Program-made: the position numbers and the translations under genes
Source: a virus
Lineage: Duplodnaviria > Caudoviricetes
Direction: 5' to 3' (one strand)
Virus record (IMG/VR): IMGVR_UViG_3300036713_000599
Length of the DNA stretch: 64,000 nucleotides
In this document: one piece after another, positions 6,976 through 64,000 of the stretch
How the letters are laid out: each line of letters opens with the position of its first letter
How positions within the stretch are numbered: the first letter of the stretch is position 1
The notes under the pieces: generated by a model
What the model saw: only the letters and a program-made list of their open reading frames with translations
Told to the model about the DNA's origin: nothing
The model's database searches: none

Positions 6976-7397
6976 AACTCATAACACGGGAAAAGGGCGA
7001 ATTACACCTCCTATTGCTGACCGGATGGGAAGGGGAGTGGGCTATCTTGAGAGGAACCGTCTACGGTGACCTACTGAGCGTGATCAGTAGGGACGTTGTC
7101 GACCACGCTTTGCACGGATGGTCGCGCCCTCTCGTGGATGCTCTCGGGATCCCTCCCGATGGTGCTTTACGAAAAGTACCGGTAGCGGCTCGTTGGTGCT
7201 GGCTAAAACATAAACGTCCCCCGCATCTGCGGTCCTGCCCCCTACAAGGTCCTGAATGCCACCATGTGGCGAAGAAGATGCCTTGGTGCTTTGAGCCCAC
7301 GGAAGCGGATGACAGTATTCGTCGAATGGCTGCGAAAGCTATCGAGCAATGGAGGGAAGGGGTGTATGTGGTGGTAGTGGAGGAAGCCTATGACTGA
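6960..7397 (+). CDS. Hypothetical protein with Cys cluster
   Basis: 145-aa ORF overlapping the pol start. C..CPL..C..CF pattern. Confidence 0.65.
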   Translation: MSRSIKLITREKGELHLLLLTGWEGEWAILRGTVYGDLLSVISRDVVDHALHGWSRPLVDALGIPPDGALRKVPVAARWCWLKHKRPPHLRSCPLQGPECHHVAKKMPWCFEPTEADDSIRRMAAKAIEQWREGVYVVVVEEAYD

Positions 7398-10300
7398 TGA
7401 CATGAACGTGGAAGACGTTGACTTTGAAGAAATGTTCAAAGAACCTCCCAAGAAGCCGAAAGCTAAGGTGACCCCTGTCGGAGATATCGGGGGTGATATA
7501 GACGAATTTCTGGCGGATGTGAAGCCAGCAGACGAACAAGAAGCCAAAATGCTGACTAAGCCGTGGATGAAATTCCACGAGTTTATTTTGGTTAAAACCA
7601 TTGAGGAAGTCAAGGCTCTTGTCGATGCAGCCATTAAACACGGTCGGTGTTCCCTCGATCTGGAGACAGAAGGGCTCGATAATCGCATCGACTACGACGG
7701 GGAGGGTAGACCTTACACGCGACATAAGATCGTGGGCTACTGTATCTCAGTCAAAGGTGTGGGACATTATCTCCCCCTTAGGCACAAGTACGATAAAACG
7801 TACAAACAAGCAAACCCCAACCTTCCTATAGAAGAGACGGACGCCGAAATCAAACGATTGTGTCTGGCAGCTCAACCCGTGATTGCGGAGGATGCTCCGG
7901 ATCAGTACGCTTCTCCAAAATTTGAGAAGCCCCCGCAGCTAGTCATCTACTTCTGGCATGCGAAATTTGATCAAGAGTTTCTGTACCCTGTGACAGGAAT
8001 TCACTTTTGGCATCCCGATTCCTTTGAGGATGGGATGCTTTCGACTTACGTGCTCTATACAGACGACGTGCTCAGCCTCAAGGTGAACGCCAAAGAGAGG
8101 TTGAAAGTCCAGGACCCAGAGACGGGGGAAGTGCACCCCTACGAGATGATCGAATTCACGGAACTCTTTCAAAAGGGGACCCCCAAGAGGTTCGCCAATC
8201 TATACCCTCGGGACGGGACAGGGATGGTGCTGTATGCCTGCTCAGACGCTATCTGTACTGAGCTGTTGTGTGAAGCCAAGAAGGTCGTGTGGAAGCATAC
8301 AGTCGAGGGACTCAAGTACGAGTACAAGAGTCCTGTGGGCCCTTCTCATGGGCCGAAGTTTCGAGGTATCCTTCGGATCGAAAAACAGGCTGCCCAGGCT
8401 GTACGAGAAATGGAGCGTTCTCGTACACTTGTAGACAAAGATGCAATTGAAGACCTTCTTGAAGAGGCGTATAAAGAAAAGCAAGAATTTGAGGAAAAGT
8501 TGGTAATGGCCGCGAAGGCTAAGGGATTTGAGGGTTTTAATCCATCCTCCACTGCACAACTCTCCGACTTCCTCTTCACGAAGCGTGGTTTGGATCTGCC
8601 AGGCAAGCCTGAGAAAAATGAGGCAAGCGGACAATACAAGACAGACGCGAAGACGCTGGAGGCCATCTACGAAAACAATCAGGATATCGAGGTCCTTCGA
8701 TGGGTCGTAATGTACCGACAAATTGATAAAACCATCGGGACGTATCTCACCAAGCTCAGTCACAACACGGACGAGTTTAATCAACTCCGGTTCAACTTTC
8801 AGCAAACAGGGGCTGGGACAGGTAGATTCACCGCCCCTCAGGGTAAAGCAGAGGAAGGCTTCGCAGCCGTTCCGATCCACGGTATCCCTGCCAGATCGGA
8901 TCCGAAACGACCGAAGGTCGCTAATTCCCTTCGCCGACTGTTTGTCGCCCATGAAGGATACGTGATCGTCAAGGTCGACTATGCAGGCCAAGAGCTTCGT
9001 GTAGTTACCTGTATCACCAAAGAGCCTAAGTGGAGGAAGGAGTTCCTAGAGGGGACAGGAGACTTACATACCCTCACGGCCCAAGCATTTTTTGGAGACC
9101 ACATTACAAAGAATCACAAGAAAGAACGTACTTGTGGAAAAATCGCGAACTTCGCTCTAATATACGGGGGCGGGGTAGGGGCCGTCCAACGAGCGGTCGG
9201 TTGCGACAAGGTTGAGGCAGCTCGAAAGAAAGAAGCTTTCGACGCCAGCGTCCCGACCTTTTCCTCGTGGGTTAAAAGTCAGCACAGGCTCGTCAAGAAA
9301 AACAAGTATGTTACGACAGGGTTTGGTCGGTACATTTCTGTTCCTGACGCAAATATCAAAGCAGGGGAATACACAGCACGGACGAAGAAGCACCCTCCAA
9401 AGCTCGTGGACGAAAAGACGGCGAGAAAGATCAGGGCCTCTTGTGAGAGGCAGTCAACCAACTTTCCTGTGCAAGGTTGCAATTTTTATGCCAGTTTGGT
9501 GAATACTCGAAAAGGTTGGGTAAAAATAGGGGAATTGTGTGGTTCGGGCGAAACTTTCTCGGTTTGGACGGGCACAAGGTGGGCAGACGCTACAGCCCAT
9601 GACATGGGTGGGTGTGAGCTTGCCAATGTTTACTTAACGGATGGTACTACCGTTAGGTGCGACACTCGACACAAGCTTTTGGTGGTCTCGGACCAGGGTT
9701 ACGACTGGGTGGACTACCAGGACTTAGAACCAGGGATGGCGGTTGCGACCTCTCTCTGTGAACAGGTAGAGTACACTCCCCCGCCTTTACCTCTCATAGA
9801 ACACCGACCCAATACCAAGGACATGGAGTCTCTTTGGTACTGGTTAGGTAGGTATGTAGGCGACAGCTGGTTTAGCGTGTTTAGTGGGACTACCTTACAA
9901 TACTCATTTGGAGATCACGAGAAAGAAGCTATAGAGGCGTGTCGAACTTTCTGGGAGAAAGTGGGCGTTAGTGCTGACGTTGGATCGAATACACACACTC
10001 CCTGTCGAGAAATGTCCACTCGTTGCACAGTTACTGTTCAGAGTCGAGAACTGCACGACTGGCTTAAGTTGATTGGGCTGAAGGAAGGCGCCACAACGCA
10101 CACCAAACGGGCCCCGTCCAGGGTCTTCAGTGAGACACTAGCTAATCGAAAGGCGTTTCTTCGAGGAGTCGTGGATTCTGGTGGGCATGAGCCCAAGCTT
10201 CCGAAGAAAATCAATGGAGTACGGGAAACCAGTAAAAAAGGGAATCCTTACAACATCCATCTGTGCCAGCGTCCTTTGCTGGAAGATTTGAAGCTGCTGT

Positions 10301-11565
10301 TTCGATCAGTTGGCGTAGAATCCGTCATCAGAGACAGAAACGGTTGTAGTAAAGCTACAACCAATTATCGTCTTGACCCTAATCGTAGGATGTATGAACG
10401 GAACGTCATGGGAAGAAAAGACGTCCATGGTCCCAAATTCCACGACATGGACGCCCCTCAATTCCTTGTGGACGACTTCCTATCCCACGGCCCGTTCCCC
10501 AGAAAAGCTTTCCAAGGAGACGAGTCCGCTTACACACTCCACAAAAGACTTCAGGTAGGTGGGAAAGTCACAGTGTATGCGCTGAAGAGGCTTTGCACGT
10601 TACTTGATGTGGTTTTAAACCACCCTATCTACGGGTTCAAGCGTATCGTCTCCAAAGAGAATCTTGGCACGGTCGAACATACCTACACGTTGTCTGTGCA
10701 GGACCCTCTTCATCGTTTTGAAGCTGACGGAGTCATCACCAAGAACTCTGGAGCAGACATGCTAAAGATCAGCTTCGTTAAGCTGATCAAAGTATTCCAT
10801 CGTAAGGGGTGGTTACGGGATGGCGGTGACGATTCTGTTCGAATGATCATGACAGTCCACGACGAGATTGTCTTTGAAGTCCGCAAGGACCGTCTCATGG
10901 AGGCTATCCCAGAAATTACTAGGTGCATGGAGAGTCCGCCCCGCCTTCGCAAGTGGGACATCCCTTTCTATGTTGAGCCCCTCATTGGTGAAAGCTGGGA
11001 CGCAAAATACGACTGGGAAGACTTGATGGCGGGTAAGACGACGTACTTCCATAGCAAAGAAGAGCCTGATAAACCAGTTCCCCAATGGCTTCTCGATCTC
11101 ATCGAACCACAAGGGAAGGATTGGCGTCTACCTTTTGAAGACGACCTTCCCCCGCCAAAGAGCGATGAGTCGGTCGCCCCTGTCGTTAAAGATGGCGCTC
11201 TTGTCGCTCAGAAGCCGGCTCAGGAAGTGCTTAAGCCTTCTACGAGGGCACCGGCCCCTAAACCGGTGCCTCAGCCCCCTGAGGTGGCCGTAGAGGGGTC
11301 ACAACAGATGGCCGTGTTCGCTATCTCCAGCTCTCAACTCACTCGACAGTCCATTCGGATCGTGTCTCAGGTGATAAAAGGAGCCGAACCATTCGAAAAC
11401 GAAAAGGACTTGAGCGGATACAAGATTCTTCAGGTGGTTGATGAGACTGGTTACGTTCTGATTTCTGCCAAATGGAGGGTGTTAGTAGACCCTGACATTG
11501 TCGGTAGGGAATTTGCACTAAGGAACCTTGGACCGGGGAACTACGACATAGTGACTTTGACGTAG
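7390..11565 (+). CDS. polA: Family A DNA polymerase with 3'-5' exonuclease, an intein and a C-terminal extension
   Basis: Exo I SLDLETEGL, Exo II WHAKFDQ, motif A KVDYAGQELRV, motif B RTCGKIANFALIYG, motif C MTVHDEIVFEV, and NFPVQG/SGAD split by the intein. Confidence 0.93.
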   Translation: MTDDMNVEDVDFEEMFKEPPKKPKAKVTPVGDIGGDIDEFLADVKPADEQEAKMLTKPWMKFHEFILVKTIEEVKALVDAAIKHGRCSLDLETEGLDNRIDYDGEGRPYTRHKIVGYCISVKGVGHYLPLRHKYDKTYKQANPNLPIEETDAEIKRLCLAAQPVIAEDAPDQYASPKFEKPPQLVIYFWHAKFDQEFLYPVTGIHFWHPDSFEDGMLSTYVLYTDDVLSLKVNAKERLKVQDPETGEVHPYEMIEFTELFQKGTPKRFANLYPRDGTGMVLYACSDAICTELLCEAKKVVWKHTVEGLKYEYKSPVGPSHGPKFRGILRIEKQAAQAVREMERSRTLVDKDAIEDLLEEAYKEKQEFEEKLVMAAKAKGFEGFNPSSTAQLSDFLFTKRGLDLPGKPEKNEASGQYKTDAKTLEAIYENNQDIEVLRWVVMYRQIDKTIGTYLTKLSHNTDEFNQLRFNFQQTGAGTGRFTAPQGKAEEGFAAVPIHGIPARSDPKRPKVANSLRRLFVAHEGYVIVKVDYAGQELRVVTCITKEPKWRKEFLEGTGDLHTLTAQAFFGDHITKNHKKERTCGKIANFALIYGGGVGAVQRAVGCDKVEAARKKEAFDASVPTFSSWVKSQHRLVKKNKYVTTGFGRYISVPDANIKAGEYTARTKKHPPKLVDEKTARKIRASCERQSTNFPVQGCNFYASLVNTRKGWVKIGELCGSGETFSVWTGTRWADATAHDMGGCELANVYLTDGTTVRCDTRHKLLVVSDQGYDWVDYQDLEPGMAVATSLCEQVEYTPPPLPLIEHRPNTKDMESLWYWLGRYVGDSWFSVFSGTTLQYSFGDHEKEAIEACRTFWEKVGVSADVGSNTHTPCREMSTRCTVTVQSRELHDWLKLIGLKEGATTHTKRAPSRVFSETLANRKAFLRGVVDSGGHEPKLPKKINGVRETSKKGNPYNIHLCQRPLLEDLKLLFRSVGVESVIRDRNGCSKATTNYRLDPNRRMYERNVMGRKDVHGPKFHDMDAPQFLVDDFLSHGPFPRKAFQGDESAYTLHKRLQVGGKVTVYALKRLCTLLDVVLNHPIYGFKRIVSKENLGTVEHTYTLSVQDPLHRFEADGVITKNSGADMLKISFVKLIKVFHRKGWLRDGGDDSVRMIMTVHDEIVFEVRKDRLMEAIPEITRCMESPPRLRKWDIPFYVEPLIGESWDAKYDWEDLMAGKTTYFHSKEEPDKPVPQWLLDLIEPQGKDWRLPFEDDLPPPKSDESVAPVVKDGALVAQKPAQEVLKPSTRAPAPKPVPQPPEVAVEGSQQMAVFAISSSQLTRQSIRIVSQVIKGAEPFENEKDLSGYKILQVVDETGYVLISAKWRVLVDPDIVGREFALRNLGPGNYDIVTLT
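9478..10746 (+). mobile_element. Intein (423 aa) with LAGLIDADG-type endonuclease in PolA
   Basis: Inserted in QG|SGAD. Starts CNFYASLV, block B RCDTRHKLL, LAGLIDADG-like WLGRYVGDS and FLRGVVDSGG, ends FEADGVITKN before Ser. Confidence 0.9.
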
Positions 11566-12808: not shown

Positions 12809-12815
12809 CTAAGTG

Positions 12816-13937
12816 ATGAAGCTGATTCGATCCACCAAAGTCTCCTTGAAAGAGACAAATCCAAGAAAGCTAAAAATCCTGGAAGAAGTATTCCAGGAAT
12901 ACGGTCGGATTGTAAACCTCTTCATCGAACTATTCTGGGAAAATCCCGTCAAAAAGTCAAAGCTTCTAAAGCCAATCGTCGACTCGGTTCTCCCTACTTG
13001 GCTTTCCGCTCGGCTTCGAAAGGTTGCCGCCCGGGAAGCCCTTGATCTGGTCCTTTCGGCCAAAAGGTCCGCGAAAGCTCTCGGAAAAGAAGCCAAAAAG
13101 CCGATTCATAGAGGGAATCGAATGTGTGTTTCGAGCACCATCGCTTCCCTTGACTTGGCTGGAAAAGCTACATCCTATGATCGCTGGCTCCACCTTCATT
13201 CCATCGGGCATCATCCCGAATTTGGAAGAGTTATCCTAGATCTCCCGATCAAATTACACAAGCATTATAATGAGTTAGCTTCTATTGGAAGACGACAAGA
13301 ATCCTACATTCTAACCTCCCGTTACGTTCAGCTCAGCTTTGAAATCGTCACCGAGGAAAAGCTCCCTTCTGACCAATGTATCGGAATCGATAGTGGAATC
13401 AAGGCTTTAGCTTCGACTTCTACTCGACATCAATTCGGGAAAGACATAGAAAAAGGGATTGAACGGATAAAACGTTGTAAACACGGTTCAAAGGGGCAAA
13501 AGAGGGCTAGAAGGGCTCTTCGCCAGAGGATGAATGAGGTGGTGAAGGAACTCTTTGACACTCTGGAGCCTACTTTGATCGTGGTAGAAAAGCTTCGTTC
13601 CTTGAATAAAGGGACAAGAGTCAAACGCCGATTGACTAAAAACGTTCGGCGCTCTATCGGTAGCTGGACATATCGTTATTGGTTGGAAAGACTAGAAAGA
13701 GAGTGTGAAGTGAGACGTTCTCGCTTTCGCTCGGTTAATCCATATAAAACCAGTCAACGATGTTCGGTATGTGGTCATATCGATAGGAGAAATCGGCGAG
13801 GAGAGGTATTCAAATGTCGGAGTTGTGATCACACTGACAATGCGGACATAAATGCCGCTTTGAATATCTTGGATCGATTTCTTACCGGACCTTACGGTGC
13901 CGGTTGCAAACCTTTAACCTTGATTGGAGCTACATGA
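12816..13937 (+). CDS. tnpB: TnpB RNA-guided endonuclease (copy 1)
   Basis: RuvC-I IGIDSG, RuvC-II VVEKL, zinc finger CSVCGH..CRSC, RuvC-III NADINAA; the catalytic D/E/D residues are intact. Confidence 0.9.
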   Translation: MKLIRSTKVSLKETNPRKLKILEEVFQEYGRIVNLFIELFWENPVKKSKLLKPIVDSVLPTWLSARLRKVAAREALDLVLSAKRSAKALGKEAKKPIHRGNRMCVSSTIASLDLAGKATSYDRWLHLHSIGHHPEFGRVILDLPIKLHKHYNELASIGRRQESYILTSRYVQLSFEIVTEEKLPSDQCIGIDSGIKALASTSTRHQFGKDIEKGIERIKRCKHGSKGQKRARRALRQRMNEVVKELFDTLEPTLIVVEKLRSLNKGTRVKRRLTKNVRRSIGSWTYRYWLERLERECEVRRSRFRSVNPYKTSQRCSVCGHIDRRNRRGEVFKCRSCDHTDNADINAALNILDRFLTGPYGAGCKPLTLIGAT

Positions 13938-13958
13938 GTAGTTTTGAACAAGTTTGCA

Positions 13959-14123
13959 GGAACGGTTTTCGCGTCCTGGTAAACTACCCCTCCCTAAAGG
14001 GAGGGGCTTTGTGCCCCTCTGGTCCTAGAGAGAGTTGAGCGGGGCTCACGCCCCGCTGTTTCTGCTTCATCGGGCCCCCAACGGGGTAACCTCCACAGAC
14101 TGCTATACCGTGGTCTCCACGGC
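13959..14123 (-). ncRNA. Putative TnpB omega/reRNA (145-nt scaffold + flank-derived guide) carried by the MITE
   Basis: Minus strand has hairpins GCCGTGG..CCACGG, GCGGGGCGTGAGCCCCGC and CCCCTCCCTTTAGGGAGGGG, ending TAGTTTAC. TnpB reRNAs are known to derive from the tnpB 3' end/right end. Expression not shown. Confidence 0.55.
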
Positions 14124-14296
14124 AAGCGAATTTACCTGAAGTCCACAAGGCTCTCTGGGGGCAGCACTTCTGGTCACCAAGCTATTTAGCGGTTTCTTGC
14201 GGCGGGGCTCCTCTGGAAACGATCAAGAAATACGTTCAGAGTCAAAAGGGCGATTCCGCCCCGCCCTGAAGGACGGAGCCACCTCGCCCTCTTTCG
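13979..14296 (-). mobile_element. 318-bp non-autonomous derivative (MITE/PATE) of the IS605 at 59028-60766
   Basis: 13979-14123 reads identical to 59028-59172 (right end); 14119-14296 is near-identical to 60589-60766 (tnpA 3' part + left end). The two parts are joined at a 5-bp ACGGC microhomology. Confidence 0.95.
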
Positions 14297-14305
14297 GTGT
14301 ATAGT
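14296..14305 (+). promoter_or_regulatory. GGTG-TATAGT promoter motif at the MITE left-end junction
   Basis: Upstream of the AAA gene; the first G is supplied by the element end. Confidence 0.6.
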
Positions 14306-14339
14306 CCCATAAGATCGGATGGTGGCTCCTTGAGGCGGC

Positions 14340-15947
14340 ATGAAAGGAAAACGAATGAATCCTGAGATGATCTTCCACTTGAAGTCGATGACTCGTTTCA
14401 TCTACTACGTCACGGAAGAAGAAGACGTCTTCTTGGCGAAGTTGGACAAGGGGCTCAAGCAGTACAAGGATCACACTTTCGTTTTCAATTACGCCTTTGG
14501 ACTTGTCCCCTTAGAACGTCTCGTAGCTGATTGGAAGAATCATGCTCATCAGGAGAGTGATGCCGAGAGTCGGGATATCCAGAGTGCTCTTGTTCAGGTG
14601 TACCGGGCAGAGCCCAGGGAAAAACAGAACTTCTACATCTTCACGGACCCTGATCGGATGTTGGCTGATCCTATGGTTCAGCGCCGCTTCCTGAATATTG
14701 CCCACCAACTCCATCAGGACGATAAAATAGTCAAGATCATCATCTTTGTTGGACCTAGGCCGGTCATCCCCCCTAAACTTCAGCGCTATATCCAGGTCAT
14801 AAAAGATACGGGCTTAGAAGAAAAGGCTGTGATCAACCTCATAAAGAAGTTCTGCTGTGAGTTGAAAGATATAACGGTGCCAGAAAATCCAAAGGCACTA
14901 GCTGAACATTTTCGAGGTCTGACTCATTTCGAAGCAACATCAGTGCTGTCTCAGAGCATCATTCAGACCAAAGGGGACAAGAACAATCCCTGTAGGATTG
15001 ATCCTCGTATCATTTCGGAGTTTAAACAGTCGCAGCTCGCCAAGACGGACTTACTCAGCTTCGTCGACACTAAAGATACGACCTTTAAAGACGTCGGAGG
15101 CAACAACCGTTTCAAACAATGGGCTCTTAAGACGAGAGCCGCATGGACGCCAGAGGGTCGAAAATTTGGGTTATTCCCTCCTAAGGGGGTGCTGCTTATG
15201 GGGGTCTGGGGATGCGGGAAATCACTCAGCGTCAAGGCCATGGCCAGCGAGTGGCGTCTTCCTGTCGTATTGCTCGAAATGGGTAAACTTCGTAGTTCTG
15301 CCGTAGGTCAGACCGAGGCCAACGTGTATCGTGCCATTAACCTGATCGAGTCCATAGGTAGCTGCATGGTGTGGGTGGATGAAGCCGAAAAGAGCTTATC
15401 TGGCGGCCAGTCCAGTGCCATGAGCGACGCAGGAACAACTAGTAGGACGATCGGAATTTTATCCAACTGGCTCCAGGAGACAAAATCTCCCGTGTGTCTT
15501 GCCATGACGGCCAACAGTCTCAGTACGATGCCGATCGAATTTATCAATCGGATGGATGAACGGTTCTTTTTCGACTTACCGTCTGAAGATGAGAGGATCG
15601 CAATTCTCAAGATCCATCTTGCGAAACGAGGCCGCAACCCTGACGACTACCAGCTCGCTGTCCTCGCTGAGCACGCCAAAAATATGGTGGGTCGAGAAAT
15701 CGAACAGGCCATAGGGGCGGCTCTCGTAGACTCATTCATCGAAGGCAAGAACGACCTTGATGGAGAAATCCTTGTCAAACAATTGAAGACAAAACCTCGC
15801 ATCTTTAAGACAATGGCAGAGGAATTAGCCGAGGTTCTGGAGTGGGTGGGGTACGATGAAGACGTTGATGACGGTATTCGTGCCCGGTTCGCCTCCGCGT
15901 CTCATAGCCAGAATTTCACTAATTTCCACAAAACATCCGAGGAATAG
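14340..15947 (+). CDS. Ycf46-like AAA+ ATPase
   Basis: Degenerate N-terminal ATPase-like domain (YYVTEEEDVF), then DVGGNNRFKQW, PPKGVLLMGVWGCGKS (Walker A), VWVDEAEK (Walker B), AMTAN. Start could be ATG 14355. Confidence 0.85.
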   Translation: MKGKRMNPEMIFHLKSMTRFIYYVTEEEDVFLAKLDKGLKQYKDHTFVFNYAFGLVPLERLVADWKNHAHQESDAESRDIQSALVQVYRAEPREKQNFYIFTDPDRMLADPMVQRRFLNIAHQLHQDDKIVKIIIFVGPRPVIPPKLQRYIQVIKDTGLEEKAVINLIKKFCCELKDITVPENPKALAEHFRGLTHFEATSVLSQSIIQTKGDKNNPCRIDPRIISEFKQSQLAKTDLLSFVDTKDTTFKDVGGNNRFKQWALKTRAAWTPEGRKFGLFPPKGVLLMGVWGCGKSLSVKAMASEWRLPVVLLEMGKLRSSAVGQTEANVYRAINLIESIGSCMVWVDEAEKSLSGGQSSAMSDAGTTSRTIGILSNWLQETKSPVCLAMTANSLSTMPIEFINRMDERFFFDLPSEDERIAILKIHLAKRGRNPDDYQLAVLAEHAKNMVGREIEQAIGAALVDSFIEGKNDLDGEILVKQLKTKPRIFKTMAEELAEVLEWVGYDEDVDDGIRARFASASHSQNFTNFHKTSEE

Positions 15948-23753: not shown

Positions 23754-23766
23754 TCGCCCTCCTTCG
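23754..23766 (-). mobile_element. Possible IS605 left-end tip remnant
   Basis: TCGCCCTCCTTCG-GTGTA matches the element left end TCGCCCTCTTTCG-GTGTA at 17 of 18 nt. Confidence 0.45.
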
Positions 23767-23775
23767 GTGTAAGGT
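23766..23775 (+). promoter_or_regulatory. GGTG-TAAGGT promoter motif
   Basis: Hexamer ends 10 nt before ATG 23782. Confidence 0.65.
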
Positions 23776-34279: not shown

Positions 34280-34289
34280 CTCCTACACC
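34280..34289 (-). promoter_or_regulatory. GGTG-TA promoter motif
   Basis: TACACC 34284-34289, 9 nt from the start codon at 34274. Confidence 0.5.
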
Positions 34290-34324
34290 GAAAGAGGGCG
34301 GCCCTTTAGGGACGGATAGTTTAC
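34289..34324 (+). mobile_element. 36-bp minimal IS605 derivative (left-end tip + hybrid hairpin + right-end tip)
   Basis: TACAC|CGAAAGAGGGCG-GCCCTTTAGGGACGGA-TAGTTTAC|CA matches both termini of the 59028-60766 element. Confidence 0.8.
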
Positions 34325-34352
34325 CAGAATTTATCTATTCAGCCGCCCTCAC

Positions 34353-47570: not shown

Positions 47571-47708
47571 ATGTCATCGGTCTCTCCGCCTTCGACTGAA
47601 CAAGCCACTGTTCTCGTCGAAACAGTGATGAGGTACACGGAATCTTTTAACCGAGTTTGTGAGGCCGGATGGGACGCCGAAAGAATCAACGGTCACCAAG
47701 CTATTTAG
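47571..47708 (+). pseudogene. Possible tnpB N-terminal fragment fused to the tnpA remnant
   Basis: PSTEQATVLVETVMRYTESFNRVCEAGW resembles an IS605 OrfB N-terminus (P..EQ..L.ET..Y..AFN.V...GW); it runs directly into the IS remnant. Confidence 0.4.
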
Positions 47709-47792
47709 CGGTTTCTTGCGGCGGGGCTCCTCTGGAAACGACCAAGAAGTACGTTCAGAGTCAGAGGGGCGATTCCACCCCGCCCTCCTTTG
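47691..47792 (-). mobile_element. IS605 remnant: tnpA 3' end + left end with deleted hairpin
   Basis: Near-identical to 60642 onward. The left-end hairpin was lost between two CGCCCT direct repeats; the remnant abuts GTGTA. Confidence 0.9.
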
Positions 47793-47801
47793 GTGTAAGC
47801 C
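47792..47801 (+). promoter_or_regulatory. GGTG-TA promoter motif
   Basis: Hexamer ends 10 nt before ATG 47808. Confidence 0.6.
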
Positions 47802-52000: not shown

Positions 52001-52018
52001 CTTTCTGTGCGTCGTCTG

Positions 52019-52058
52019 GTGAACCAGCCCTCCCTAAAGGGGGGCTTGTGTCTCTCTG
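52019..52058 (-). mobile_element. Degenerate IS605 right-end remnant
   Basis: GTGAACCAGCCCTCCCTAAAGG vs element GTAAACTACCCCTCCCTAAAGG (3 mismatches in 22); flanked by TG and GTGTA. Confidence 0.7.
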
Positions 52059-52080
52059 GTGTACTTATCGATCATACACC
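52058..52080. promoter_or_regulatory. Palindromic pair of promoter motifs GGTGTA-N11-TACACC between divergent genes
   Basis: Minus-strand copy reads GGTG-TATGAT toward the endolysin; plus-strand copy faces the gene at 52093. Confidence 0.5.
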
Positions 52081-52492: not shown

Positions 52493-53002
52493 TCACTCTA
52501 ATTCTTCTTTCAAACATTGAACCACTCCTTCTAATCTTCGACGCTGGATGTCCGAGATCCTCACTAGCACATCTCCTTTGCCGCCACGGAATCCTAGCGC
52601 CCTGTGGCTTTCGACGACATAGATATGCGTGGGCACCCCAATGCCCAGAAGGACCTCACAGACCTCTTTCCACTGGATACGGCCCGTTCTGAATTTCAGC
52701 ACGCGAGCTTCGTCCGGGCACAGGGCCAGAATCCCGAGGGATTCCAGTCCCATCGTATGAGCATGCTCCTTGACAAGAGGACCGATATCGCCCACTGATG
52801 CCATGAGGCCGTGAAAGATTTCTAGGGAGGATACGAAGGCTTGCTTAACCTTCTGCCTTTCTGGGTTCATCTTATCTCCAGGGCGGGGAGGAGGTCCCGC
52901 GTCGTGAGGCACAGAACTCGGTCTGATCGAGATCTTGACTCCTACAAAGCCTCGGCCTTCAGGTCGAGGTAGTTGACTCACAAGGTAGACTACACCGATC
53001 AA
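52493..53002 (-). CDS. Hypothetical protein
   Basis: 169-aa ORF overlapping the upstream stop. Confidence 0.55.
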   Translation of the reverse strand: MIGVVYLVSQLPRPEGRGFVGVKISIRPSSVPHDAGPPPRPGDKMNPERQKVKQAFVSSLEIFHGLMASVGDIGPLVKEHAHTMGLESLGILALCPDEARVLKFRTGRIQWKEVCEVLLGIGVPTHIYVVESHRALGFRGGKGDVLVRISDIQRRRLEGVVQCLKEELE

Positions 53003-58780: not shown

Positions 58781-59077
58781 ATGAACAAATTCAGCACCAC
58801 CGAAGCATACCGCGAAGCGAAAGAACTACACAAGCAGGCGGAAGAGACCTTCAACAAAGCGAAAGACGCCTTGAAGGCGGCCCAGGATATCCTAGAAGAC
58901 GCTAAAACGGTCCGTGATGCAGCACACTCCGTTCAAGACATCGAGGACTACGAAGAGGCGTTATCGACGCTCTACGACCTTCTTGATTACTACGGCCTCG
59001 CTAAAGCCATTCTTGCCCACGATCGTGGTAAACTACCCCTCCCTAAAGGGAGGGGCTTTGTGCCCCTCTGGTCCTAG
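58781..59077 (+). CDS. Coiled-coil protein whose C-terminus is supplied by the IS right end
   Basis: SD GAGG/GGAAA before ATG 58781; the frame reads into the element after HDRG. Confidence 0.65.
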   Translation: MNKFSTTEAYREAKELHKQAEETFNKAKDALKAAQDILEDAKTVRDAAHSVQDIEDYEEALSTLYDLLDYYGLAKAILAHDRGKLPLPKGRGFVPLWS

Positions 59078-59172
59078 AGAGAGTTGAGCGGGGCTCACGC
59101 CCCGCTGTTTCTGCTTCATCGGGCCCCCAACGGGGTAACCTCCACAGACTGCTATACCGTGGTCTCCACGGC
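59008..59172 (-). ncRNA. Putative TnpB omega/reRNA with guide CACGATCGTGGGCAAGAATG
   Basis: Scaffold overlaps the tnpB 3' end and right end; guide inferred from the flank, as in ISDra2. Confidence 0.6.
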
Positions 59173-60295
59173 TGAGAATCACCTTGGCAGCATTGACGTC
59201 GGCGTTATCTGCATGGCCACAGGCCGTGCAGATAAACTCTGACTGTGAGATCCGTGACGCTGCGTCCACGGTCTCACAGCAACTACAGGTTTGCGATGTA
59301 TAGTGCGGAGGTACCTTGATCAAGGTACCTCCCGCCCAATCCAGCTTGTACTGGATCATCCACGCAAGAAGGCCCCATCCCGAGTTCAAGATACTGCGGT
59401 TGAGGCCAGCTTTCTGTCTTACATTCCGGCCAGGTAATTCAGATGTGCCGGACGCGGACTTCGTCATGTTCTTCACCTGGAGATCCTCGATCACCACTGT
59501 GCCGTGGCTTTTAGCGTAGTGGAGAGCGATCTGATGCAGCAGATGATTGCGTTGTCGCCGCACCTTTCGATGCAAGCGAGCTACTCTAAGTTGAGCCTTT
59601 CTGTGATTGTTTGAGCCTTTCTTTTTCTTTGACAGGGCTCGCTGAGCCCTGGTTAGTCTTTGCGTCGACGTCCTCATTCCCTCTGGACCGTCAAATACGT
59701 TCCTGTCTGAATCTGCAACGAGATGTTTGACTCCACGATCCAAACCTACTCTGCCGGGTTTGCGGAGCCGTTCCTCTATCTCGACTTCGCAGGAGATTGA
59801 AACGAACCATTGGTCTGCTTCGCGCACCAATGCACACGTTTTACCTTTACCTTCTAGTGGGCGGTGCATCTTGGTTTTTAGCACACCAAGTTTAGGGAAT
59901 CTCACATCTCCTTCTTCTGTGACCCGCCAGTACCTAGGGTGTGGCTCAATCAAAGAGACATTGTCTCTCCCCTTGCGCTTAAAGTGTGGAGGCTTTGAAA
60001 TTTTCTTAAAACCCCGCTCCCAAGCCTTAGCGAGTTCCTTCAGAAGTTGATCGAGGACATTTCGAGGAACATCTGCAAGCCACTCAAACTCAGGGTCCTT
60101 GAGAACTTCGGTCAGTTCCTTCATTTGGTCGAAGGCCGACAGGTACTCCTTAGGGACACGACTTAGGCCAGACCGTCTGTGCTCATGAGCACAGTTCCAC
60201 AGAAATCGTAAGGATCCTTCCCATCGAGCAAGCCGCTCGGCTTGCTCGGGCGTTGGGTAGACGCGGTAGCGAAAAGACTTGCGGACGATTCTCAT
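59033..60295 (-). CDS. tnpB: TnpB RNA-guided endonuclease (copy 2)
   Basis: FRYRVYPT N-terminus, VGLDRG, VIEDL, TSQTCSCC..ICTACG, NADVNAA; RuvC D/E/D intact. Confidence 0.95.
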   Translation of the reverse strand: MRIVRKSFRYRVYPTPEQAERLARWEGSLRFLWNCAHEHRRSGLSRVPKEYLSAFDQMKELTEVLKDPEFEWLADVPRNVLDQLLKELAKAWERGFKKISKPPHFKRKGRDNVSLIEPHPRYWRVTEEGDVRFPKLGVLKTKMHRPLEGKGKTCALVREADQWFVSISCEVEIEERLRKPGRVGLDRGVKHLVADSDRNVFDGPEGMRTSTQRLTRAQRALSKKKKGSNNHRKAQLRVARLHRKVRRQRNHLLHQIALHYAKSHGTVVIEDLQVKNMTKSASGTSELPGRNVRQKAGLNRSILNSGWGLLAWMIQYKLDWAGGTLIKVPPHYTSQTCSCCETVDAASRISQSEFICTACGHADNADVNAAKVILSRGDHGIAVCGGYPVGGPMKQKQRGVSPAQLSLGPEGHKAPPFREG

Positions 60296-60313
60296 CTCAC
60301 CTATAGTTGGTAT

Positions 60314-60739
60314 ATGACACAAAATGATTCATACCGCAAGGGGAGACATGTGGTTTTTGAGTTACACGTTCACTTGGTCTTCGTGCCAAAGTACCGTAGG
60401 GGCGTAATCACTCAGCGAGTCTACGACATCCTCCATGGGGCTTGGCAGAAAGTCTGTAAAGACTTCGAGGTTGTCTTGGAAGAGGCAAACTTCGAAGACG
60501 ACCATGTTCACCTCTTGGTCAACTATCCTCCAAAGGTCTCATTGTCGAAGCTTGTTAATTCGCTCAAGGGGGTGTCCGCTCGCCGAGTACGGCAAGCGAA
60601 TTTACCTGAAGTCCGCAAGGCTCTCTGGGGGCAGCACTTCTGGTCACCAAGCTATTTAGCGGTTTCTTGCGGCGGGGCTCCTCTGGAAACGATCAAGAAG
60701 TACGTTCAGAGTCAAAAGGGCGAGGTGGCCCCGCCCTGA
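60314..60739 (+). CDS. tnpA: IS200/IS605 Y1 (HUH) transposase
   Basis: HLVFVPKYRR, HUH DHVHLL, LKGVSAR, WSPSY..catalytic IKKYVQSQ. Confidence 0.95.
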   Translation: MTQNDSYRKGRHVVFELHVHLVFVPKYRRGVITQRVYDILHGAWQKVCKDFEVVLEEANFEDDHVHLLVNYPPKVSLSKLVNSLKGVSARRVRQANLPEVRKALWGQHFWSPSYLAVSCGGAPLETIKKYVQSQKGEVAPP

Positions 60740-60765
60740 AGGACGGAGCCACCTCGCCCTCTTTC

Positions 60766-60775
60766 GGTGTAGAGT
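60766..60775 (+). promoter_or_regulatory. GGTG-TAGAGT promoter motif at the IS left-end junction
   Basis: Hexamer ends 10 nt before ATG 60782; the first G is from the element. Confidence 0.65.
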
Positions 60776-61090: not shown

Positions 61091-61159
61091 GAAGCCTCGT
61101 TGAGACAGGGCAGTCCATTCTCTTCCGAACATACCCACACGAGGAATCGTAACACGAAC

Positions 61160-61717
61160 ATGACAAGTCCGATCAAAGCCTGGCACTTCATCTGTGACGA
61201 TTCAACGATCAAAACGTCCTCAATGAAAAGACCCTTAAAGGTTCATCAAGGGCAGATCTTAAGGCATCGAGGCCCTCTAGAACTTTGCAAAAAAGGACTT
61301 CACGCAAGTGTGAAGCCCCTTGACGCTCTCAATTATGCCCCAGGATCTGTGGTTTGTCGAGTTGAGTGTAGCGGTGAGGTGATCCGTGGTGACGGCAAAC
61401 TGGTCTGCTCCAGGAGGAAGGTTCTTTGGGCCAAAGATGCTTCAAGGGTTCTTCATGAATTTGCCATTTGGTGCGCAGAGAGAGCTTTAGAAAAAGTTGA
61501 AAATCCCGATCCGAGAAGTCTAGAAGCTCTCAAGGTCAAAAAGTTGTGGCTCGATGGGAAGGTCACTAATGAAGAACTAGAGGCTGCTAGGGAGGCTGCC
61601 AGGAATGCTGCCAGGGATGCTGCCAGGGAGGCTGCCGATGAGGCTGCCGATGAGGCTATCAGGGATGCCCAAAACGAAGAACTCGAAAGAAGACTCTTAG
61701 CTCTGCAGCCTCATTGA
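61160..61717 (+). CDS. Array paralog 1 (DUF7666-like N-domain + Imm5-like helical domain, AAxx repeats)
   Basis: KAWHF..LCKKGLHAS..PLDAL.YAPG..CRVECSG..KLVCSRR; LHEFAIWCAERAL..DPRS..LWLDG; 185 aa. Confidence 0.8.
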   Translation: MTSPIKAWHFICDDSTIKTSSMKRPLKVHQGQILRHRGPLELCKKGLHASVKPLDALNYAPGSVVCRVECSGEVIRGDGKLVCSRRKVLWAKDASRVLHEFAIWCAERALEKVENPDPRSLEALKVKKLWLDGKVTNEELEAAREAARNAARDAAREAADEAADEAIRDAQNEELERRLLALQPH

Positions 61718-61769
61718 AACCAGGTACCCAATTTGTTCCGAACCTTCTCACACGAGGAATCACAGCACA

Positions 61770-62363
61770 ATGACAAATCCAATCAAGGCGTGGCACTTCA
61801 TCTGTGATGATTCCACAATCTTCACGGATTCAATGAAAAGACCCCTCAAGGTCCACAGGGGGCAGATCTTGAGACATCGAGGCCCTTTGAAACTCTGCAA
61901 GAAAGGTCTTCATGCAAGTGTGAGGCCTCTTGACGCCCTCGGTTATGCTCCAGGAACTATGATCTGTAGGGTAGAGTGTAGCGGCGAGGTAGTCCATGGT
62001 GGCGACAAACTGGTGTGTTCTAGAAGGAGAGTTCTTTGGGCCAAAGATGCTTCAAGGGTTCTTCATGAATTTGCCATTTGGTGCGCCGAAGAAGCATTGG
62101 AAAAGGTCAAGGACCCTGACCCGAAAAGTTTGAGGGCCATCGAGATCAAAAAGTTGTGGCTCGATGGAAAGGCCACTGATGAGGAGCTAAAGGCTGCTAG
62201 GATCGCTGCCGGGGACGATGCCTGGGGTGCTGCCAAGCACACGGCCAGGGAGGCTGCCTGGCACGCTGCCTGGTACGCTGCCAGTGAGGCTGCCATGAAG
62301 GTTACCAGGGAGAGTCAAAATGAAGAACTCGAAAGAAGACTCCTAGCCTTACATCCTCTCTGA
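61770..62363 (+). CDS. Array paralog 2
   Basis: Same architecture, 197 aa. Confidence 0.8.
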   Translation: MTNPIKAWHFICDDSTIFTDSMKRPLKVHRGQILRHRGPLKLCKKGLHASVRPLDALGYAPGTMICRVECSGEVVHGGDKLVCSRRRVLWAKDASRVLHEFAIWCAEEALEKVKDPDPKSLRAIEIKKLWLDGKATDEELKAARIAAGDDAWGAAKHTAREAAWHAAWYAASEAAMKVTRESQNEELERRLLALHPL

Positions 62364-62418
62364 AACCAGGTACCCAATTTGTTCCGAACATACCCACACG
62401 AGGAATCGTAACACGAAC

Positions 62419-63081
62419 ATGACAAGTCCGATCAAAGCCTGGCACTTCATCTGTGACGATTCAACGATCAAAACGTCCTCAATGAAAAGACCTCTCAAGG
62501 TCCACAAAGGGCAAACATTGAGGCATCGAGGCCCTTTGAAACTTTGCAGAAAAGGCCTTCATGCAAGCATAAAATCTCTTGATGCCCTCAAGTATGCCCC
62601 AGGATCTGTGGTTTGTAGGGTAGAATGTAGCGGCGATGTGATCCACGGAGAAGACAAATTAGTGTGTTCCAGGAGGAGAGTTCTTTGGACTAAAAACGTT
62701 GGAAGATCTCTTCATGAATTCGCTATTTGGTGCGCTGAAGAAGCATTGGGAAAAGCCAGAAACCCTGACCCGAGAAGCCTAAAGGCTGTCGAAATCAAAA
62801 AACTTTGGCTCGAAGGGAAAGCCACTGATGAGGGGCTAAAGGTTGCCAGGGACGCGGCCAGGGACGCGGCCAGGGAGGCTGCCAGTGAGGTTGCCAGTGC
62901 CGCCAACGAGGCTGCCAGGGAGGCTGCCAGTGAGGTTGCCTGGGATGCTGCCAGGGAGGCTGCCTGGTACGCTACCTGGGATGCTGCCGGGTACGCTGCC
63001 TGGGATGCTGTCGACGAGGCTATCAGGGAGAGTCAAAATGAAGAACTTGAGAGAAGACTCCTAGCCCTATGTCCTCTCTGA
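62419..63081 (+). CDS. Array paralog 3
   Basis: Same architecture, longest AAxx tract, 220 aa. Confidence 0.8.
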   Translation: MTSPIKAWHFICDDSTIKTSSMKRPLKVHKGQTLRHRGPLKLCRKGLHASIKSLDALKYAPGSVVCRVECSGDVIHGEDKLVCSRRRVLWTKNVGRSLHEFAIWCAEEALGKARNPDPRSLKAVEIKKLWLEGKATDEGLKVARDAARDAAREAASEVASAANEAAREAASEVAWDAAREAAWYATWDAAGYAAWDAVDEAIRESQNEELERRLLALCPL

Positions 63082-63146
63082 GAGGCTTCATTAAGACCAA
63101 GTACCCAATTTGTTCCGAACATACCCACACGAGGAATCGTAGTACG

Positions 63147-63800
63147 ATGGCAAATACAACCAAGGCGTGGCACTTCGTCTGTGATGATTCCACAATCTTC
63201 ACGGATTCGATGAGAAGACCCCTCAAGGTCCACAAAGGGCAGATCTTGAGACATCGAGGTCCTTTGAAGCTTTGCAAAAAAGGCCTTCATGCAAGCATAA
63301 AATCTCTTGATGCCCTCAAGTATGCCCCAGGATCTGTGGTTTGTAGGGTAGAATGTAGCGGCGATGTGATCCACGGGGAAGACAAACTGGTCTGTTCCAG
63401 GAGGAAGGTCCTTTGGATGGCTGATGCTTCAAGAACCCTTCATGAATTTACGATTTGGTGCACCGAAACTGCCTTGAGCGAAATCAAAAACCCGGATCCA
63501 AGAAGCCTAAAAGCCATTGAGGTCAAAAAATTGTGGATCGACGAGAAGGCCACTGATGAGAAACTAAAGGCTGCTGAGATTGCTGCCTGGGACGCTGCCA
63601 TAGTGGCTGCCAGGGACACGACCCGGAGTGTTTCCAGGGACGCTGCTTGGAATGCTGCCAGGTGCGCTGCCAGGGACGCTGCCTGGTACGCGGCCCGGGA
63701 GATCGCCAGGGCAGCGTGCCGATTCGCGGCCCAGGACATTGTCAGGGAGAGTCGAAACGAAGAACTCGAAAAAAGGCTCCTAGCCTTACATCCTCATTGA
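63147..63800 (+). CDS. Array paralog 4
   Basis: Same architecture, 217 aa. Confidence 0.8.
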   Translation: MANTTKAWHFVCDDSTIFTDSMRRPLKVHKGQILRHRGPLKLCKKGLHASIKSLDALKYAPGSVVCRVECSGDVIHGEDKLVCSRRKVLWMADASRTLHEFTIWCTETALSEIKNPDPRSLKAIEVKKLWIDEKATDEKLKAAEIAAWDAAIVAARDTTRSVSRDAAWNAARCAARDAAWYAAREIARAACRFAAQDIVRESRNEELEKRLLALHPH

Positions 63801-63852
63801 AACCAGGTACCCAATTTGTTCCGAACATGTCCACACAAGAAATCACAGCACA

Positions 63853-64000
63853 ATGACAAATCCAGTCAAAGCATGGCACTTCATCCGTGATGATTCAACG
63901 ATCAAAACGTCCTCAATGAAAAGACCCCTCAAGGTCCATCAAGGACAAATTCTGAGGCATCGAGGTCCTCTGGAACTTTGCAGAAAGGGTCTTCACGCAA
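63853..64000 (+). CDS. Array paralog 5, truncated by the window edge
   Basis: MTNPVKAWHFIRDDSTIKTSSMKRPLKVHQGQILRHRGPLELCRKGLHA, open at the edge. Confidence 0.8.
   Translation, partial: MTNPVKAWHFIRDDSTIKTSSMKRPLKVHQGQILRHRGPLELCRKGLHA

Follow-up and report, generated by a model that had tools for sequence, protein, structure and literature searches.

The IS605 element of Helicobacter pylori carries a Y1 tnpA gene and a divergent tnpB, has subterminal hairpins and inserts 3′ of a short target without duplication. For ISDra2 the functional ωRNA scaffold comprises 116 nt and overlaps the disordered and dispensable C-terminal domain of TnpB (residues 376-408), and the 5′ region (-231 to -117) is unnecessary for cleavage (PMC10097598). 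PATEs "often encode ωRNAs", to be acted on in trans by TnpB of other IS copies (Meers et al. 2023; PMC10055086), and an OMEGA review (2026) has a category for the homing of transposons into co-infecting phages, "transposon non-restorative homing" (PMC13565253). Gene-less IS605 derivatives bearing an ωRNA are known, and the locus described here adds a phage-like case.

The window, which is the whole stretch of 64,000 nucleotides that was analysed, carries one full IS605-type element and, 45 kb away from it, a gene-less element of 318 bp (referred to as the MITE). We consider the MITE, with a probability of about 0.8, to be a PATE-type gene-less deletion derivative of an IS200/IS605 element with an intact, promoter-less ωRNA module.

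DNA of the window is present in sediment metagenomes, and the TnpB protein of the full copy is recorded on a contig of 282,752 bp. With PHROG matches to two helicases, a PolA-type polymerase (1391 aa), a thymidylate synthase and a ClpX-like ATPase, among others, the window resembles a replication module from a large phage. The polymerase ORF (7390-11565, plus strand) is unusually long, and its PHROG polymerase matches cover residues 11-696 and then 1116-1208, a gap suggestive of a large insert, for instance an intein. The region 61100-64000 (plus strand) holds at least four tandem paralogous ORFs with a period of ~610-730 bp, each with 12-bp repeats (GCTGCCAGGGAN) coding for alanine/arginine/tryptophan-rich repeats.

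Full-length element and transposon ends

The full copy is organized as follows.

59028-60771 (−), full IS605-type element including the TACAC motif, IS200/IS605 family
59033-60295 (−), tnpB, 420 aa from ATG
60314-60739 (+), tnpA (Y1), divergent from tnpB
59028-59172 (−), predicted ωRNA scaffold

The features of the IS200/IS605 family found in this copy are a Y1 (HUH) TnpA, a TnpB with the RuvC triad, subterminal hairpins and a specific insertion motif; as to terminal inverted repeats, a repeat search of the window gave no inverted-repeat pair. TnpA matches the Pfam model Y1_Tnp with E=6e-41 over profile positions 2-121 of 121, and TnpB matches OrfB_IS605, Cas12f1-like_TNB (residues 307-373) and HTH_OrfB. 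Judged by its RuvC triad (D186, E270, D366) and its zinc-finger residues (C337/C340/C356/C359), all invariant in an alignment of 27 sequences, the TnpB is intact and catalytically complete. Its closest public relatives are only 57-58% identical, and the best viral relatives in an IMG/VR search with the protein only 37%. The start codons of the two divergent genes are 18 nt apart.

Homologous tnpB loci (~90) were gathered from genome and metagenome contigs. Across an alignment of about 70 distinct homologous tails of tnpB, the nucleotides are conserved up to ...GGGGTnGnTTAC (...CCCTTTAGGGnGGGGTnGnTTAC, TTAC), beyond which conservation drops abruptly. By this drop after TTAC, the full copy has its right end at 59028 and the MITE at 13979. 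At the left end, 18 loci with divergent tnpA are conserved from a TCATC-like motif onwards, followed ~8 nt later by GCGCGG and the hairpin CCGnCCTTCAGGnCGG. The window copies carry TACAC where the homologues have the TCATC-like motif, namely in the full copy, the MITE, a fragment at 47691-47797 and the mini relics. Since conservation starts at the TCATC/TACAC position, TACAC is a candidate target/TAM and the next 12 nt represent the left end. The view that the whole 17-nt stretch TACACCGAAAGAGGGCG is native phage sequence preceding the left end was rejected, because homologues in unrelated genomes are conserved from TCATC/TACAC. With the right end fixed by the tnpB tails and the left end by the 18 loci, the 20-nt flanks are the guides that the first-pass annotation had written, and its TAM position stands as well:

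13959-13978 (−), predicted guide of the MITE ωRNA, 3′ flank of the right end, CAGGACGCGAAAACCGTTCC
59008-59027 (−), predicted guide of the full copy, CACGATCGTGGGCAAGAATG
14297-14301 (−), TACAC (GTGTA on the plus strand), candidate target/TAM 5′ of the left end
12813-13967 (+), second, unrelated tnpB-only element, 374 aa (gene 12813-13937), Pfam TNB domain only

In a search allowing up to 4 mismatches the sole matches of both guides in the window were their own flanks. With its last 9 nt the MITE guide reaches into the right end of the adjacent tnpB-only element, which occurs in other contexts in metagenome contigs, with similarity breaking at 12816 and 13967; an IMG/VR search with its 374-aa TnpB found no relative. 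The right ends of this element (13967) and of the MITE face each other tail to tail at a distance of 11 nt, and the predicted guides thus run into each other's element in an antisense overlap.

At every copy with a right end the first flank bases are CA, and every copy sits at CTG|GTGTA. The hexamer GGTGTA, followed by 9-11 nt and an ATG, occurs at about 19 sites in the window, often preceded by T-rich sequence (e.g. 1499, 3305, 22457, 23766, 27230, 41000, 47792 and 60766 on the plus strand; 34289, 37906, 47518, 57071, 57282 and 58378 on the minus strand). Beside start codons it is far commoner than expected for a hexamer, and it has the look of a phage-specific start signal, perhaps a promoter for near-leaderless mRNAs. 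According to the position of all copies at CTG|GTGTA, this IS605 family inserts into the putative start-signal motif, and its left-end tip restores the T-rich stretch ahead of GGTGTA.

Structure of the gene-less element and its predicted scaffold

The MITE consists of two blocks of the full copy.

13979-14296, MITE without the target motif, 318 bp, followed by GTGTA at 14297-14301
13979-14123 (−), right-end part, conserved ωRNA scaffold with the terminal ...GTTTAC, identical to 59028-59172 at 145/145 positions
14124-14296 (−), left-end part, antisense 3′ fragment of tnpA (codons ~93-141) plus left end, 96% identical to 60589-60771
14119-14123, deletion junction ACGGC, microhomology of the tnpB 3′ region (59168-59172) and tnpA (60589-60593)
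14261-14276, TnpA-type left-end hairpin CCGnCCTTCAGGnCGG, conserved with compensatory changes in the 18 homologous loci

The first-pass annotation had described a 318-bp deletion derivative that keeps 145 nt of the right-end region, joined to the left end at ACGGC. Size and coordinates were confirmed, as was the complete identity of the 145 nt. At the junction the two parental blocks (repeat families D8 and D9) overlap by ACGGC, a pentamer found at both parental sites, and the MITE has both transposon ends, which it shares with a TnpA-mobilisable element, with 100% and 96% identity to the full copy (6 mismatches in 183 positions between 14119-14301 and 60589-60771). A match to the full copy by chance is excluded by the sequence comparison (BLAST E-values of 1e-73 and 1e-85). 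As in PATEs and MITEs, both ends are combined with the lack of a protein-coding gene. The ORFs across the element are short and overlapping (at most 83 aa) and are read as spurious; in addition there is a C-terminal tnpA fragment without start codon, and 128 nt of tnpA 3′ coding sequence are left.

Positions 60724-60727 of the full copy read GGTG, where the MITE (14254-14257) and the 47691 fragment have TTCC or a TTCC-like sequence. GGTG gives a 12-bp perfect extension of the left-end hairpin, and the MITE version is nearer to the family consensus (GGGGAGGAA) than that of the full copy. According to this difference, either the MITE did not arise directly from the full copy as it is now, or sequence was exchanged between copies.

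The ωRNA profile search revealed one copy of the MITE in the window. Neither blastn of the MITE against the phage database nor an exact scan of IMG/VR for the right-end terminus gave a match. Among the metagenome contigs listed there is none across the MITE, and four metagenome runs gave no contig that joins the two sides of an empty site; contigs break at the repeat.

Four helices were found to be conserved across the family.

14122-14108 (−), H1 of the MITE; 59171-59157 (−) in the full copy
14099-14061 (−), H2 of the MITE; 59148-59110 (−) in the full copy
14056-14039 (−), H3 of the MITE; 59105-59088 (−) in the full copy
13987-14006 (−), right-end hairpin of the MITE

RNAalifold on 56 sequences showed compensatory double changes at 18 of the 19 pairs of H2 and the right-end hairpin. 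H1 and H3 were folded sequence by sequence, because the alignment register hides both. Each of them is present in 56/56 homologues with differing stem sequences, for H1 CCGUGG/CCACGG, CCGCCG/CGGCGG, CCGAGG/CCUCGG and GCCGUGCG/CGCUCGGC. Among the homologues, two reading frames of the TnpB C-terminal tail (…SRG.HG.AVCGG… versus …SRANRSALPVEG…) run through one and the same set of conserved nucleotides, e.g. CUGUGGAGG, and conservation there thus acts at the RNA level.

All four family-wide helices lie within the 145 nt of the MITE (13979-14123). H1 begins with the junction bases GCCGU, so that the breakpoint falls at the 5′ edge of this helix, at TnpB residue ~375 of 420 and just past the TNB domain. 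Upstream of the junction no family-wide helix was detected: predicted pairs are invariant or show wobble-only changes, and the 64 nt on that side score a median z of +0.24 relative to shuffled sequences. Part of the window's subfamily has a further hairpin in the zinc-finger codons (59226-59196), which the MITE no longer carries. The earlier statement that all visible hairpins are retained consequently applies to H1, H2, H3 and the right-end hairpin, and not to this subfamily hairpin. A pseudoknot like that of ISDra2, with the 3′ tail GUUUAC pairing to the linker of H2 and H3, was looked for and could not be established.

The MITE scaffold matches the ωRNA profile with E=4e-20 (nhmmer). With this profile only two full scaffolds were detected in the window, those of the full copy and of the MITE, and the ~90 homologous loci yielded a few right-end halves but no full scaffold standing by itself. 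An Rfam search of the window returned no family match and no CRISPR-type match. By comparison with the homologues and by analogy with ISDra2, where the scaffold likewise overlaps a C-terminal part of TnpB that follows the corresponding residue (376-408), the scaffold of the MITE is most probably complete. The comparative work defines the ωRNA of this TnpB clade, with four helices in ~145 nt, together with the right end …TTAC and the TAM position.

Possible expression of the guide strand and competing readings

A deletion between the two ACGGC pentamers would account for the loss of the 5′ two-thirds of tnpA, of the region with the divergent promoters and of tnpB up to residue ~375. Retained are the TACAC motif, the left-end and right-end TnpA hairpins and the unchanged 145 nt with the family-conserved helices. 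TnpA from the full copy could excise and paste the MITE, and the predicted donor joint after excision is ...CGCGTCCTG|GTGTATAGTCC. If the minus strand of the MITE is transcribed, an ωRNA would result with a scaffold identical to the cognate one and with its own flank as guide. The empty site TACAC+CAGGACGCG... would then become the target of TnpB acting in trans, and recombination after the cut would restore the element, as in the homing model of Meers et al.; candidate target sites of TnpB are TACAC+CAGGACGCGAAAACCG and TACAC+CACGATCGTGGGCAAG. Since ωRNAs of PATEs served in trans have already been published, the first-pass proposal is the published model applied to a new case.

As tnpA and tnpB start 18 nt apart, the native tnpB promoter must have lain in the deleted centre. 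A consensus scan of 13700-14700 found no sigma-70-like site on either strand, and the phage-type GGTGTA motif is absent from the minus strand between 14301 and 16567. Both genes adjoining the MITE are on the plus strand, opposite to the guide strand. Both the MFE and the centroid fold of the MITE RNA place the new 5′ leader GGUAAAUU in a duplex with the scaffold 3′ end AGUUUACC; this modelled pairing could mask the guide junction. As far as can be read from its sequence, the ωRNA module of the MITE is structurally intact and its native promoter is lost. That the MITE ωRNA is expressed and loaded on TnpB is conceivable, with odds leaning against it. If it is, the locus would be a compact natural test case, with one nuclease gene, two guides and known targets on a virus, in which one could test whether remnants hitch-hike on TnpB homing and whether homing occurs between co-infecting phage genomes.

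Further relics of the same IS family in the window number five or six, and all of them are without the scaffold.

47691-47797 (−), 107-bp left-end/tnpA-3′ fragment, left-end hairpin deleted, 92-95% identity
47564-47690 (+), foreign piece joined directly to the 47691-47797 fragment, the N terminus (~40 aa, MSSVSPPSTEQATVLVETVMRYTESFNRV...) of a third kind of tnpB
34284-34327 (+), 44-bp mini consisting of TACAC, 12 nt of the left end and the last 24-26 nt of the right end (pattern 17/17, 23/25)
52017-52066 (−), ~50 bp, right-end relic of ~41 nt after TACACC, no scaffold
23755-23771 and perhaps 1488-1504, solo left-end tips
about 52865-52975 (+), second-lineage relic of the same IS family

The second-lineage relic shows the order TTCATC, left-end tip, 3′ half of the left-end hairpin, H3-like hairpin and right-end hairpin ending with GGTAGTTGAC; H1 and H2 are missing. 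Contigs of run X4, a crustacean metagenome and thus a habitat quite unlike sediment, cover 13986-14262 and are 90-95% identical to the full IS. In these contigs the right end runs on into tnpB and tnpA into the left end, and they are flanked by ...GGTGTA+GGAGGTAGCATGG.

We give even odds to the view that the MITE is an inert decay product, one step in a neutral deletion series that arose by a recent deletion and whose ωRNA region was never expressed. The window indeed holds a graded series, which leads from the full copy over the 318-bp MITE and the 107-bp fragment to the 44-bp and ~50-bp minis, the solo tips and the second-lineage relic, and no promoter was found. Because the other relics lost the scaffold, its retention in the MITE may be incidental. 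Nevertheless, the MITE has kept its two TnpA hairpins, the TAM and the TTAC of the cleavage site undamaged, and according to this it should still be mobilisable. Zero substitutions in the scaffold and a breakpoint exactly at the scaffold edge also do not fit this view well.

The same breakpoint speaks for a selected and expressed guide cassette, as had been suggested in the first-pass annotation: one phage TnpB would be served by dispersed ωRNA-only elements that home to or protect their own loci. The right-end piece starting at the 5′ edge of H1 is the smallest one with all conserved helices, and the scaffold shows 100% identity to its cognate counterpart, whereas the left-end part diverged by 3%. 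There is a precedent in the PATE literature (PMC10055086), and other related right-end copies with different flanks are present in the same sediment metagenomes (contig loose ends). Nevertheless, no guide-strand promoter was found and the native promoter region is deleted, the other derivatives are without scaffold, and the MITE is a single example whose breakpoint may have been placed by microhomology alone. The term dispersed guide cassettes is not supported by a window of 64 kb with only two full scaffolds. Regarding the proposed role of the guides, a guide taken from the own flank fits self-homing and does not fit defence. Altogether we regard a selected cassette as doubtful.

A role on the plus strand is unlikely. 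In this reading a terminator-like hairpin would follow the upstream tnpB-only gene (terminator-like site at 14038-14057, plus strand) and the left-end tip would rebuild a ...CTTTCGGTGTA start signal for the downstream gene, in line with the ~19 putative GGTGTA start signals and with the T-rich bases restored upstream by element copies at CTG|GTGTA. Here, however, GGTGTA is 38 nt away from the ATG of the next ORF instead of the usual ~10, and terminator-like sites are no more numerous than in shuffled sequence. Moreover, such a role would be a side effect of insertion and leaves the retention of the scaffold unexplained.

It is improbable that RNA-guided homing is at work here, with the full-copy TnpB being loaded with its own ωRNA, that of the MITE and further ωRNAs of the ~283-kb genome and cutting element-free GGTGTA sites of relatives. 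If it were, competitors would be converted or excluded in mixed infection, and the system would be a programmable analogue of T4 Seg/Mob, the specificity modules of which are separate, mobile and protein-less cassettes. The idea of a distributed mini-CRISPR, that is a defence or counter-defence mini-array with guides against foreign or host DNA, can be dismissed almost entirely, since beyond the formal analogy of a scaffold with a variable 3′ segment nothing speaks for it, the guides are the elements' own flanks with the self site as sole match in the window at up to 4 mismatches, and neither a repeat-spacer organisation nor an Rfam or CRISPR-type match was found.

Comparison with known systems

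The element of the window shares with H. pylori IS605 the divergent tnpA and tnpB, the subterminal hairpins and the duplication-free insertion. The DNA sequence of IS605 is unrelated, and its host context is other than a sediment phage-like contig. Like T4 Seg/Mob homing, a nuclease that cuts the element-free allele in mixed infection would convert this allele; unlike in phage homing endonucleases, the specificity would come from the RNA of a separate gene-less element.

The predicted ωRNA resembles that of ISDra2 TnpB (Karvelis 2021; Nakagawa 2023, PMC10097598) in its origin from the tnpB 3′ end and the right end, with the flank as guide, and in its multi-stem scaffold of ~116-145 nt, which overlaps only the C-terminal tail of TnpB. 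The TnpB is distant from that of ISDra2, the candidate TAM is TACAC and not TTGAT, and tnpA and tnpB are divergent here.

The PATE-like elements of Geobacillus stearothermophilus (PMC10055086) come closest, since the MITE is likewise gene-less, keeps both end hairpins and needs TnpA in trans. Unlike the PATEs of that study, it resides in a phage-like genome, was seen in one copy and retains 128 nt of the tnpA 3′ part. Its parent has divergent tnpA and tnpB genes, so that the deletion took the central promoters. As it stands, the MITE is a clean and well-delimited example of a type already described for bacterial PATEs.
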